This document shows positions 3,144 to 10,230 of a DNA stretch of 64,000 bases, piece by piece (within the stretch, counting starts at the first letter, position 1; each line of letters opens with the position of its first letter). The position numbers and the translations under genes were made by a program. This DNA is from Nitrospirota bacterium (lineage in GTDB: Bacteria > Nitrospirota > Nitrospiria > 2-01-FULL-66-17): positions 128,001 through 192,000 of the forward strand of contig JBMOMC010000001.1 of assembly GCA_049325335.1 (NCBI GenBank), read 5' to 3'. The notes below the pieces were generated by a model. It was not told where the DNA came from. It searched no databases and saw only the letters and a list, made by a program, of their open reading frames with translations.

Positions 3144-3428
3144 TTACTGCGAGGAACGCGGCGGACCGCGGGAGGAGACGACGAGAACCGACGACTCAGA
3201 AACCGCGTCATGACTCGACGGGAGGAACTCGCTGAGGCTGACAAGGGCGGCGAGCGGCGGAGCAGCGGATTCGGTCGCGTTGGCGTGTTGTACCCACGCC
3301 CCGATAAGGCATCCGTGAGGGTCAGTCAGTTCGTCCTGGGCGTATGCGTGCTGAAGGGAGAAGCCTGAAAACAGCGCCAGGTAGAGCGCAAGGCCCCAGA
3401 CCGAGGCGATAGACGTCGCGCGTTTCAT
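3144..3428 (-). CDS. Small leader protein (94 aa), DUF2946/CruR-like, with C-terminal RGPP motif
   Basis: Signal/TM segment MKRATSIASVWGLALYLALFSGFSLQHAYA, then HGC...H, ending SSRGPPRSSQ; lies directly upstream of an OM transporter gene. Confidence 0.75.
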   Translation of the reverse strand: MKRATSIASVWGLALYLALFSGFSLQHAYAQDELTDPHGCLIGAWVQHANATESAAPPLAALVSLSEFLPSSHDAVSESSVLVVSSRGPPRSSQ

Positions 3429-3438
3429 ATCGCCGCAA

Positions 3439-3468
3439 AATCTAACACAACCACGAAATTCGTGCCAA
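3439..3468 (-). promoter_or_regulatory. Putative sigma70 promoter of the RGPP leader
   Basis: TTGGCA-N18-TAGATT with extended -10 TG; -10 ends 10 nt before ATG 3428; 6-1-6 palindrome CACGAA-A-TTCGTG at 3452-3464. Confidence 0.55.
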
Positions 3469-3501
3469 GCATCGGATTGCGCGCCGACAAGGCTCCACCA
3501 G

Positions 3502-6500
3502 TCACGCCGCATCAGCCCTGTTATCCCCGGCATGGACCATCCGGTAAAGGACCGGCAGGACCAACAACGTCAGCACCGTGGAGGACAGAATACCTCCGAT
3601 CACCACCGTGGCCAGGGGTCGCTGAACCTCCGCCCCAATACCCGTCGACAGCGCCATGGGGACGAATCCAAGCGACGCGACCAGGGCCGTCATCAAGACC
3701 GGTCGAAGCCTGGTGACGGCGCCCTGCGAGATCGCCTGATCGAGCGGCGCCCCCTCCGAGCGCAATTTGTTGATGAACGAGATCATCACCAGGCCGTTCA
3801 GCACCGCGACCCCGGAGAGCGCGATGAACCCCACGCCGGCGGAAATGGACAATGGAATTTCCCGCAGCCAGAGCGCCGCAACGCCGCCGGTGAGCGCCAA
3901 GGGAACGCCGGTGAACACTAGGAGCGCATCCTTGGTCGTGCCAAAGGTCATAAACAACAGGACGAAAATCAGTCCGAGCGCGAGCGGCACGACCACTTGA
4001 AGCCGCCGAGCCGCCGAGAGCATTTGCTCGAACTGCCCGCCCCAACTCGTCCAGTACCCCGCTGGGATACTGACCTGTGCTTCGATCGCCTGTTGGGCCT
4101 CCGACACAAACGACCCGAGATCGCGGCCCCGGACGTTCGCGGTCACCACCACCCGTCGTTTCCCATTTTCCCGGCTGATCTGATTTGGCCCGGGAGCGAT
4201 CGTGAAATCGGCAACCGCGCCGAGGGGGATGTAGGACCGCGAGGATGAGCCCTCCCCCAGCCCGCCTTGCGACGAGGAAACGGACCCGCCGTCTTGCGAG
4301 GGAAGTGGAAGCGGAATGCGTGTGAGCGCGTCAAGATCCCCCCTCATCGCCTCCGGGAGACGGACCACCAGGTCGAATCTCCTATCGCCTTCAAACACCT
4401 GGCCCACGCGCTTGCCCCCCAAGGCGACCTCGACCACTTCTTGGACGTCGGCGACGTTCAGACCATACCGCGCCATCGCGTCCCGATCCATCGTGATCGT
4501 GAGGACCGGGAGCCCCGTGACTTGTTCGACCTTCACGTCGGACGCGCCTGGAATCGTCCCCAGAACATCCTCGACGGACTCGCCGGTGGTCATCAAGACA
4601 TCCATGTCGTCGCCGAAGATCTTGACCGCCACGTCGCTGCGAACTCCTGAAATCAATTCATTAAATCGCATCTGGATCGGTTGTGTGAACTCGTAGTTGT
4701 TCCCCGGAACTTGCTTGACCCGAGCCTCCATGGCCCGCACCAGGTCGGCTTTCGGGCGTTTCGGATCAGGCCACTCCGAGCGGGGTTTGAGCATGACGAA
4801 GTTGTCCGCCACGCTGGGCGGCATGGGGTCGGTGGCGATGTCCGGCGTGCCGATCTTCGCGAACACGCGCTGCACTTCGGGAAATTCCTTGACCGACTCC
4901 TCCAAAAGCCGTTGCATATCGATCGCCTGGGTCAGACTGGTTCCCGGGATCCGCAGGGCATGCAGGGCAATGTCCCCCTCATCGAGACTCGGAATAAACT
5001 CGCTGCCCATCCGGCTCGCCATCGCGCCGGAGAACAGCACCAACACCGCCGCGCCGGTCACCACTGCTCGCCGATTCCGCAGCGACCAGGCCAACAGCGG
5101 GCCGTAGGCCTGCTTCGCCCAGTGGACCACCCGGTTGTCGTGCTCTGACAACCGACCGGAGAGAAACAGCGCGATCGCGGCGGGGACAAACGTCACGGAA
5201 AAGGTCATCGCGCCGATCAACGCGGCGAGCACCGTGAACGCCATCGGAATGAACATCTTGCCTTCCACCCCGGTGAGGGTCAGGACGGGCAAGTACACGA
5301 TCATGATGATGAGCTGGCCATAGATGAGCGGCCGTCGTGTTTCACTCGCCGCTTCGAAGGCGATCGCCATGCGCTCGGCCAGGTTCAGTCCGCGCCCCAG
5401 CCGCCGCTGCGCCTCGGAAAATCTCCGCACGCAGTTCTCCACGATGACCACGGCACCGTCCACGATGATGCCGAAATCCAGCGCCCCCAGACTCATCAGA
5501 TTCGCGCTCACCCGGTTGGCCACCATGCCGGTGATCGTCACGAGCATCGAGAGCGGGATGATCAGCGCCGTAATCGCCGCGGCCCGGATATTCCCCAGAA
5601 AGACAAAGAGGATGACGATGACCAGCACAGCCCCTTCAGCCAGGTTGGTTTTCACGGTCCGAATGGTCGCGTCGACCAAGGTCGTCCGGTTGTAAACGGG
5701 GGTGGCGACCACACCGTCCGGCAGGGTTCGGTTAACCTCGACCATCTTGCCGGCCACGGCGTGCGAGACCGTGCGACTGTTCTCGCCCATGAGCATAAAG
5801 ACCGTCCCGAGCACGACCTCCTTGCCATTCTCGGTCGCGGCTCCGGCCCGGAGTTCCTTCCCCACTAACACCTCCGCGACGTCCCGGATATAGATCGGGA
5901 CGCCGCGCCTGGTCCCCACCACGATCCGGCGAATCTCGTCAAGCCCGGCGACCTGGCCGGGCGCTCGGATCAAATACTGCTCGCCCCGGTGCTCGATGTA
6001 CCCCGCTCCCACGTTGGCGTTGTTCCGGGCTAGGGCTTCCAACACGTGCGGCATCGTCAGGCCGTAGGCGATCAACTTGTCCGGATAGGGCGTGACGTGA
6101 AACTGCTTCTCATACCCGCCGACCGAGTTCACTTCGGTGACCCCGCGCACGGTTCGGAGTTGGGGTTTAATGATCCAATCCTGAATCGTCCGCAAGTCGG
6201 TTTCGGAATACGGAGGTGGCGCCGAAACCGTGTACATGAAAATCTCCCCCAGGCCCGTGGCAATGGGGCCCATGGCAGGTTCGACGCCGGGAGGGAGTTT
6301 TCCCTTGGCTTCTTGGATCCGCTCGTTCACCAATTGCCGGGCAAAGTAGATGTCCGTCTTGTCTTCGAAGATCACCGTCACTTGCGACAACCCATATCGA
6401 GAGATGGAGCGGGTTTCTTTGAGGCGCGGAAGCCCGGCCATTACCGTCTCGATGGGAAAGGTGACGCGCTGCTCCGCTTCAAACGGGGAGAACCCCGGGG

Positions 6501-9636: not shown

Positions 9637-9717
9637 ACATCCTCCGAGTTCTTCGCAAGACATGACCGGGCGTCCCTTCCGAGTATCCGGAAGAGCGGAA
9701 CGGGAAGAACCGAGGCG

Positions 9718-10191
9718 TTAAATCAGTAAAACGGTGGTACGGTGGGAACGCAGCGAGGGACTGAGCGAGAATTGATACGGATCAGTCTGATCCGCGCGGA
9801 GTTGAGCGACAGTTACCTCGTCATTCGTGATGAACGGGAGGACGGCGATGACCTGCACGATGGGAACAGCCATTGATACACTTGGCGCCACGGCCTGTTG
9901 TCCGTGGTTCGACAGCGGCAGCTCGTGATCTGGTGGAACATTTCCAAATGTTCCAAATGAGGCGCCGTCGTGCACGTGATCGACAGCCTGGTGTTCATCC
10001 TGGTATCCGTGATGGTGCAACACCAGCCGAAGCTGGTTGTTCGTCGCGGACATGACAGCCTGATGGGAGCCGTCCGCAACCAGGGGAACCAAGAGGAGTC
10101 CTTGCAGGCTGGCGAACCACACGAACAGATAAACAGCAAGCCCCCATCGGACCATGCAGAACCGATCAGATCTCGCAGAAAGTATCTTCAT
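9718..10191 (-). CDS. His-rich membrane-anchored leader protein upstream of czcCBA (CzcI-like position)
   Basis: N-terminal TM WGLAVYLFVWFASLQGLLLVPLVA; HHHGYQDEHQAVDHVHD; C-terminal RSHRTTVLLI. Start chosen from promoter position; 10155 is an alternative. Confidence 0.65.
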   Translation of the reverse strand: MKILSARSDRFCMVRWGLAVYLFVWFASLQGLLLVPLVADGSHQAVMSATNNQLRLVLHHHGYQDEHQAVDHVHDGASFGTFGNVPPDHELPLSNHGQQAVAPSVSMAVPIVQVIAVLPFITNDEVTVAQLRADQTDPYQFSLSPSLRSHRTTVLLI

Positions 10192-10201
10192 GCCGCTGAC
10201 T

Positions 10202-10230
10202 AATCTATCAGACCCGCGGTCGCTGTGCAA
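10202..10230 (-). promoter_or_regulatory. Putative sigma70 promoter of the czc leader
   Basis: TTGCAC-N17-TAGATT with extended -10 TG; -10 ends 10 nt before ATG 10191. Confidence 0.6.

Follow-up and report, generated by a model that had tools for sequence, protein, structure and literature searches.

To our knowledge, metal-sensing leader peptides have been proven only for copper and only with stalls of the proline type, namely CruR and CutF. The described systems that come closest to the locus presented here are CruR/DUF2946 of Bordetella pertussis (PMC9426467, PMC12992588), CutF of Rhodobacter capsulatus and the CutF-like upstream open reading frames (uORFs) (10.1101/2022.11.11.516240, 10.1101/2025.02.05.636593), CzcI of Cupriavidus metallidurans (NCBIfam NF045614) and the stop-codon arrest peptides TnaC, PepNL, NanCL and the NSP-/NAP-/DGMK-stop leaders (PMC11890864; 10.1101/2023.09.02.556018). 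In the survey of CutF-like uORFs, genes of outer-membrane efflux proteins (OEP/CzcC) are the commonest neighbors (10.1101/2022.11.11.516240, 10.1101/2025.02.05.636593), and CzcI has been suggested to be a regulator (10.1101/2022.11.11.516240). Here, two small ORFs, uORF1 and uORF2, are described that precede two metal transport modules in a stretch of 64,000 nt (the window) of a Nitrospirota bacterium. The host genome (G000) comprises 3.25 Mb, and 61 related genomes served as comparison set.

Two leader ORFs in front of metal transport genes

Judged from the comparison of sequences, both small genes are probably ribosome-pausing switches for the genes behind them. They lie on the minus strand in the gene order nikR, OprB-like porin, ZnuA-type solute-binding protein (SBP), uORF2, czcC, czcB, czcA, uORF1, outer-membrane barrel, ZnuA-type SBP and ABC-3 permease. 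All sequence details listed in the initial annotation, which gave no strand, are present. uORF1 reads MK...WGLALYL...SLQH...HGC...SRGPPRSSQ-stop and uORF2 reads MK...WGLAVYL...SLQG...HHH...HRTTVLLI-stop. The sequences TGtTAGATT and TGaTAGATT each end 10 nt before the ATG of the uORF, without a Shine-Dalgarno (SD) sequence, the stop contexts read TAACGCACTC and TAACGCCTC at uORF1 and uORF2, respectively, and the downstream SD of both leaders is paired in the minimum free energy fold. The earlier observation is confirmed. Both ORFs are conserved, each with a membrane segment, invariant His (and Cys) residues, a tail kept among relatives and an anti-SD that can pair ahead of the following gene; their reading as leaders is well supported by the comparison, that as a pair with shared architecture is not.

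Neither uORF1 nor uORF2 matched a Pfam or NCBIfam family. Rfam gave zero matches in window 1-20000, so that no known riboswitch is present there.

A conserved tail and a stop-adjacent anti-SD in the uORF2 family

The elements of the uORF2 locus are the following:

9718..10191, minus strand: uORF2 (P0002), His-rich leader of 157 amino acids with a hydrophobic helix, a predicted 3-strand sheet and the tail RTTVLLI-stop
9718..9741, minus strand: conserved tail RTTVLLI of uORF2 plus TAA
10202..10230, minus strand: putative promoter of uORF2 (predicted), TTGCAC-17-TAGATT, the -10 ending 10 nt before the ATG
9704..9716, minus strand: anti-SD strand immediately 3' of the uORF2 stop
9641..9654, minus strand: czcC SD region GAAGAACTCGGAGG, pairing with the anti-SD (czcC ATG at 9636)

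The czcC SD pairs with a strand that starts 0-3 nt after the uORF2 stop in 18 of 19 uORF2 loci, compared with 6 of 248 gene pairs of the host genome, and one of these six control positives is a similar leader before an OEP gene. The 19 loci comprise 8 at czcC orthologues, 2 further ones and 9 out of another 13, from which three duplicates and L125 (no downstream start) were dropped. When a ribosome whose A site contains the stop codon is masked, the cost of opening the SD falls by at least 2 kcal at 16/19 loci (median 5.9) versus 9/120 controls. The native anti-SD/SD duplex beats swapped partners in 17/19 loci, and compensatory exchanges are found beside the CTC/GAG core, where C-G, T-A and T-G interchange, as do G-C and A-T; this covariation was counted by script anchoring, and MAFFT misaligned the SD region. 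The spacers at uORF2 loci measure 56-128 nt and contain a dedicated stem. Downstream of the leader lies an OEP gene in 9/9 loci scanned (L112 and L126 were outside the scan).

Of the 12 close czcC orthologues, 8 are preceded by a leader that ends in T/S-x-L-L/R-I-stop; at the other 4 a RAPP leader occupies the same slot. With a 7-member uORF2 profile 129 representatives were retrieved, whose tail consensus L..LRTTVLLI is conserved 11 residues deep (L-11, L-8, R-7, T-5, L-3). Against circularity the tail columns were removed from the profile; among the 59 significant matches of this tail-free profile the tail is present in 49 by regular expression and in 51 with two near forms, and the 8 tailless matches are 2 giant false ones, 5 apparent fragments or read-throughs and 1 with a VMLC ending. 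PP in the last 15 residues is absent from uORF2 and occurs in 6/118 tail-bearing relatives, while PP at -25 to -12 is found in 63/118.

The invariant ligands of uORF2 are His and Asp, with H43, H59/H60 and D88-H89 on the predicted sheet; the Cys-based Cu motif of CutF-like uORFs was not found in uORF2. The distance from D88-H89 to the C-terminus has a median of 66 residues with a standard deviation of 2.7 (49/50 rows). AlphaFold predicts a helix (6-39) and three strands (43-50, 53-60, 89-93) with a pTM of 0.41 and a pLDDT of 83-96 over residues 11-60, the C-terminal half of the model being of low confidence, and a fold search with the model gave no match at E<=0.001.

A phylum-wide profile search found the strict uORF2 family in 6/401 genomes, so its distribution is patchy. 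In the related genome G001 the -35 TTGCAC of uORF2 is kept, there with an opposite-strand gene upstream. An independent plasmid set (8/12 records, chosen solely for czcC similarity) comprises 7 loci with an xxLL[I/N/T]-stop tail and 1 with an LRPP tail, and the 7 tails sit on differing N-terminal domains (Methylomonas, Salinibacter, Defluviicoccus). The combination of an LRTTVLLI-stop tail and a stop-adjacent anti-SD was not found described in the literature searched, in which subscription journals were mostly uncovered; the supplements of the CutF survey might include such proteins.

Several further leaders were noticed beside this family. A third leader type at G000:C1:24967-25362 (minus strand, locus L129) has 131 amino acids, ends LFVLHASLIR-stop and precedes an OEP-like gene; it has TTGACA-17-TATGGT 12 nt before its ATG and an anti-SD immediately 3' of its stop. 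Across Nitrospiria, RAPP leaders, His-rich ones among them, are also located ahead of czcC orthologues and of OEP genes that are more distant (L081, L084-L086, L093, L095-L099). Behind the uORF2 relative at L125:3453 onward, the downstream SD and czcC are seemingly replaced by unrelated DNA, possibly an insertion.

The RGPP leader uORF1 and its relatives

The elements of the uORF1 locus are the following:

3144..3428, minus strand: uORF1 (P0001), RGPP-type leader of 94 amino acids with an N-terminal hydrophobic segment
3159..3170, minus strand: RGPP codons of uORF1, presumed arrest motif
3439..3468, minus strand: putative sigma-70 promoter of uORF1 (predicted), TTGGCA-18-TG.TAGATT, the -10 ending 10 nt before the ATG
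3148..3177, minus strand: anti-SD tracts of uORF1 on both sides of the RGPP codons, CTCCTCC at 3177-3171 and TTCCTCGCA at 3156-3148
3071..3119, minus strand: long hairpin between uORF1 and the barrel gene, 17-bp perfect core at 3112-3076, region z = -4.25
3058..3064, minus strand: SD of the barrel gene, GGAGGAG (barrel ATG at 3055)

From the 61 related genomes 30 barrel loci were taken, and a small R[AG]PP-ending ORF lies upstream in 26 of them; two of the other 4 loci are cut by contig ends, one has no barrel match and one no leader. The alignment covers 24 of the 26 leaders, leaving out 2 His-rich leaders of a barrel paralogue, and H27, Y29, E33, C40, G43, R87, P89 and P90 are invariant in it. 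A profile search yielded 70 proteins, all of which keep HxY and C.[IV]G and have R[AGS]PP at most 12 residues from the C-terminus, with a Cys-to-Arg offset of 47 (34 proteins), 48 (33) or 49 (3). CxxC is found in 0/70; there is a single invariant Cys in C.[IV]G instead. Pfam PF11162 (DUF2946) matches 0/24 members, and in the genome it matches only a different leader on contig C2. The Atlas neighbor cluster of uORF1 is 54% DUF2946 with 174 shared features, and the named relatives belong to Nitrospirota/Nitrospiria. By analogy, uORF1 is probably a CruR/CutF-like (DUF2946-like) arrest leader. Since metal-linked RAPP/RGPP uORFs, including those before OEP/CzcC genes, have already been described, it is a CXXC-less addition to this class, and the lack of CXXC is what is new in it.

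The genes behind uORF1 members encode barrels or CarboxypepD_reg proteins at spacers of 48-262 nt. Three additional members precede CarboxypepD_reg proteins, which are probably TonB-dependent receptors.

In 15/25 uORF1 loci versus 13/120 control pairs, at least 5 SD nucleotides are paired within the stretch that a ribosome at RxPP would cover, and masking cuts the opening cost of the SD by at least 2 kcal in 13/25 loci versus 14/120 controls; the downstream starts were picked by eye from SD motifs, and the control pairs were likewise required to have an SD. At the uORF1 locus of the window masking drops the opening cost from 14.3 to 9.8 kcal, and the hairpin at 3071..3119 brings the anti-SD beside the barrel SD.

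A -10 hexamer ends 5-14 nt before an in-frame ATG in 19/25 uORF1 loci, compared with 8/25 and 3/25 in shifted windows, and 16 of these loci also have a -35 match. This supports near-leaderless promoters as recurrent across the uORF1 family. Near-leaderless starts are common genome-wide (123/1026 ATG genes without SD, peak at 6-12 nt), and the codon-position bias of the leaders fits coding. Longer upstream starts at 3533 (uORF1) and 10248 (uORF2) were set aside, as promoter placement, the many relatives of 94 amino acids and G001 favor 3428 and 10191. A long His-rich RGPP leader precedes the barrel paralogue (L028:649-1102, G000:C6; L029), also with a leaderless-type promoter.

Transport genes behind the leaders

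8254..9636, minus strand: czcC-type outer-membrane efflux protein (OEP)
6701..8257, minus strand: czcB-type periplasmic adaptor (HlyD match)
3502..6711, minus strand: CusA/CzcA-family heavy-metal RND transporter (TIGR00914, 1612 bits)
1784..3055, minus strand: outer-membrane beta-barrel (weak BBP2 match, below cut-off)
837..1760, minus strand: ZnuA-family solute-binding protein
55..840, minus strand: ABC-3 (ZnuB-like) permease

The matches to OEP, HlyD and CusA/CzcA TIGR00914 identify czcCBA, and the weak BBP2 barrel, ZnuA and ABC-3 form the other module, in agreement with the gene identities given earlier. A czcC start at ATG 9663 was set aside; the one at 9636 has an SD. From the left, modABC-like genes converge on the barrel-SBP-permease cluster (window 55-3055).

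Proposed mechanism and alternative explanations

In our judgment, the two ORFs are reasonably likely to be independent cis-acting leaders, each of which gates the next gene via an SD/anti-SD stem that is disrupted by a ribosome parked at the 3' end of the leader. This rests on conservation, positions, pairing potential and covariation, from which we infer leader translation, stalling, metal binding and the direction of control. Each leader would be translated from its own near-leaderless mRNA. On uORF1 the ribosome would pause at RGPP, CruR/CutF-like, and free the barrel SD; metal binding at the His/Cys site, fixed 47-49 residues upstream of RxPP, would probably release this pause, and the barrel/SBP/permease genes would be off under plentiful metal. 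On uORF2 the parked ribosome would free the czcC SD while holding the stop codon in its A site, since the anti-SD starts directly behind the stop; a proline motif is absent. The LRTTVLLI tail would slow termination, and metal bound some 66 residues upstream, on the His-rich sheet outside the cytoplasm, would prolong the pause and turn czcCBA on. Both leaders would follow one RNA logic, in which a parked ribosome frees the SD, so that control in opposite directions would require metal to act oppositely on the two pauses: uptake would go down and efflux up with metal through release of the RGPP pause, as in CruR, and a prolonged stop-codon pause, as in CutF. The RAPP leaders that fill the same slot at 4/12 czcC orthologues support an arrest on uORF2.

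A broader proposal is made tentatively, as possible rather than probable. LRxxVLLI-stop could be a widespread, undescribed termination-arrest motif carried by varied exported metal-binding domains (Nitrospirota, Gamma- and Alphaproteobacteria, Rhodothermota), where the nascent His-rich chain with periplasmic Ni/Co/Zn would hold the ribosome on the stop codon and switch on czc-type efflux. It would be a functional alternative to RAPP and would, in this genome, mirror the RGPP uptake leader.

Several points weigh against these proposals. At uORF1, the SD is unpaired within the footprint at 10/25 loci, and the invariant His27 may belong to a signal peptide that can be cleaved off (HAYA/Q). The uptake role of the barrel/SBP/permease cluster is only suggested, because no ABC ATPase gene lies within it (window 55-3055). 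At uORF2, the stem of the window forms (z -1.4), but the gain from masking is no more than about 1 kcal (9.8 to 8.7-9.0; 10.7 with the shortest mask), the strict anti-SD test is passed by 3/7 plasmid tail loci, with two more pairing from +11/+12, and the RAPP-type czcC leaders gain 2 kcal in 1/4 only. The loci are related, so the counts and the permutation test overstate independence. Furthermore, when RAPP-like motifs were tested in E. coli and B. subtilis, the majority caused no stalling (10.1101/2023.09.02.556018).

Ordinary termination would also open a stem adjoining a stop codon, and the same consideration favors plain translational coupling at uORF2. The nonpolar tail would then be a protease tag on an unstable exported product and metal control would be transcriptional or absent, with uORF1 still an arrest leader. 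Nonpolar C-termini have been noted as degradation signals (PMC9426467). The weak modeled masking gain in the host genome and the nearby nikR and NikR operator fit this explanation as well. However, a degron usually needs less than the 11-residue-deep conservation of the uORF2 tail, and coupling does not account for the fixed His-to-stop spacing, the substitution by RAPP leaders at orthologous czcC genes or the spacers of 56-128 nt with their dedicated stem, and we regard it as rather unlikely.

It is improbable that the uORF2 product is a stable membrane-anchored periplasmic metal-binding Czc accessory acting in trans. The invariant His cluster on a small predicted sheet within the well-modeled residues 11-60 and the OEP gene behind all nine scanned loci would suit such a protein, but the pTM, the low-confidence C-terminal half and the missing fold match do not, and the stop-adjacent covarying anti-SD and the swap with RAPP leaders would be left unexplained.

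Relation between the two leaders

Apart from the leader-type reading, the initial annotation had proposed a two-leader system with shared architecture, and this part was not supported: most of the shared motifs are unconserved, and the modules are neighbors in no genome outside this genus, within which they adjoin each other in G000 and G001. When homologues were aligned, as had been suggested as a check, the His positions and tails proved conserved, whereas the exact WGLAxYL/SLQ membrane motif is not kept. Homology of uORF1 and uORF2 was rejected, since BLAST aligns the 7-residue match alone and the profile-profile comparison (hhalign) gives a probability of 1.0%. The WGLAxYL match has a score of 37, which is reached by 1/795 N-terminally hydrophobic host proteins per query and by 22/3000 random pairs. 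WGL occurs in 17/70 uORF1 and 3/50 uORF2 relatives and marks one lineage in the two families, and SLQ occurs in 1/70 and 2/50, respectively. TAACGC(A)CTC is present at 1/26 uORF1 and 1/8 uORF2 loci, with 12 occurrences genome-wide. TGnTAGATT-N10-ATG has exactly two sites in the host genome, those of uORF1 and uORF2, and is found at 2/26 uORF1 and 1/8 uORF2 loci. The shared stop context, SLQ and the exact -10 were therefore rejected as conserved features, being lineage-specific among orthologues. What survives as the sole link is an LxxYL core in the membrane segment (37/70 uORF1 and 21/50 uORF2 relatives versus 18/795 background proteins), a motif that was chosen post hoc and with each family counting as one event; it hints, on sequence grounds, either at a constraint common to both families or at a remote origin.

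Three of the five degenerate identical codons in the WGLAxYL match differ synonymously, which excludes a recent copy between the leaders. In G059 the modules lie 6.3 kb apart and divergent, and elsewhere they occupy different contigs or lack the partner; two genomes of the same genus, G002 and G003, contain uORF1 and no close czcC. In spite of the identical promoter spacing unique in the genome, the rarity of WGLAxYL by chance, the enrichment of LxxYL in both families and a uORF2 relative with WGLALYL itself, it is most improbable that the leaders are homologous and act as a coordinated pair with a common sensing architecture, in view of the hhalign result, the unconserved motifs, the codon differences and the modules standing apart or alone in other genomes; this reading is largely refuted at the family level.

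At least three further leader-like ORFs are present in the host genome, one of them at the DUF2946 cut-off; this motif census is a minimum, as the rough gene caller overlooked uORF2 itself. A RAPP-ending leader at the DUF2946 cut-off, G000:C2:214381-214740 (minus strand; L139:1492-1851), precedes a 347-amino-acid protein that by eye resembles a Tat-exported ApbE flavin transferase, an unusual target.

Metal of the efflux module and the nikR region

The metal of the efflux module is probably Ni (or Co/Zn), as far as the neighborhood indicates. Nickel is the best guess because the region upstream contains nikR together with a NikR-type operator, and because two Manganitrophus plasmids have nikR in divergent orientation to this same leader.

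12653..12679, no strand assigned: NikR-type operator GTGTTAC-N13-(A)TAACAC, between nikR and the OprB-like porin and ZnuA-type SBP genes, upstream of uORF2 and not part of the leaders

This operator is the sole such site in the genome, and the OprB-like porin and the ZnuA-type SBP are likely a nickel-repressed uptake unit. Directly upstream of nikR (window 13421-17079) are genes for PCP_red-repeat proteins, a CADD/heme-oxygenase-like enzyme and an Mrp/ApbC ATPase, which are conserved in G001. Inverted repeats lie between the PCP_red gene and nikR (window 13224-13423). Part of this sequence is also found upstream of uORF1 in G003, which suggests that the porin/SBP/czc block was inserted between the two.

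Comparison with known systems

Like CruR, uORF1 is the first gene before an outer-membrane uptake protein and has an export signal and a long spacer. CruR has 45 residues from CXXC to RAPP and uORF1 has 46-48 residues between Cys and the Arg before the C-terminal RxPP. In contrast to CruR, it has no CXXC (0/70) and no Pfam DUF2946 match, and H-x-Y, E and a single Cys are invariant. CruR acts through Rho, whereas the evidence for uORF1 points to an SD stem. As a CXXC-less RGPP member, uORF1 can help to find out which ligands determine the metal and the sign of control. That the two leaders occur as a pair is of little importance, and the valuable part is the uORF2 family.

uORF2 shares with CutF and the CutF-like uORFs the exported nascent chain and, as proposed here, a ribosome that melts the stem hiding the next SD and a metal that turns a detoxifying gene on. 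An SD-shielding stem near the leader end, one of the CutF-like criteria, is found in the uORF2 family (18/19 versus 6/248), with weak modeled release in G000. The CutF-like survey required PP in the last 15 residues, which uORF2 lacks there, and unlike CutF its ligands are His-only and its anti-SD follows the stop, indicating a pause at termination. With CzcI it has in common that a small exported ORF without a C-terminal proline motif lies right before czcCBA; a search of the genome with the CzcI model NF045614 (E<=1) did not hit uORF2, and none of 7 family members matched the model either. If the proposal is true, the uORF2 family is a His-only sensor for divalent metals before heavy-metal efflux pumps that pauses at termination, which would assign a role to numerous small 'hypothetical' genes ahead of czcC and account for the part that genes in the czcI position have long been suspected to play. 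With the stop-codon arrest peptides uORF2 shares conservation up to the stop and, as proposed, a pause at termination that controls the next gene. Their motifs are unrelated to the uORF2 tail, and in the parts of the sources covered none of them is described as metal-sensing or as lying before metal efflux genes. The conserved ending of uORF2 may represent a novel means of ribosome pausing at a stop codon.

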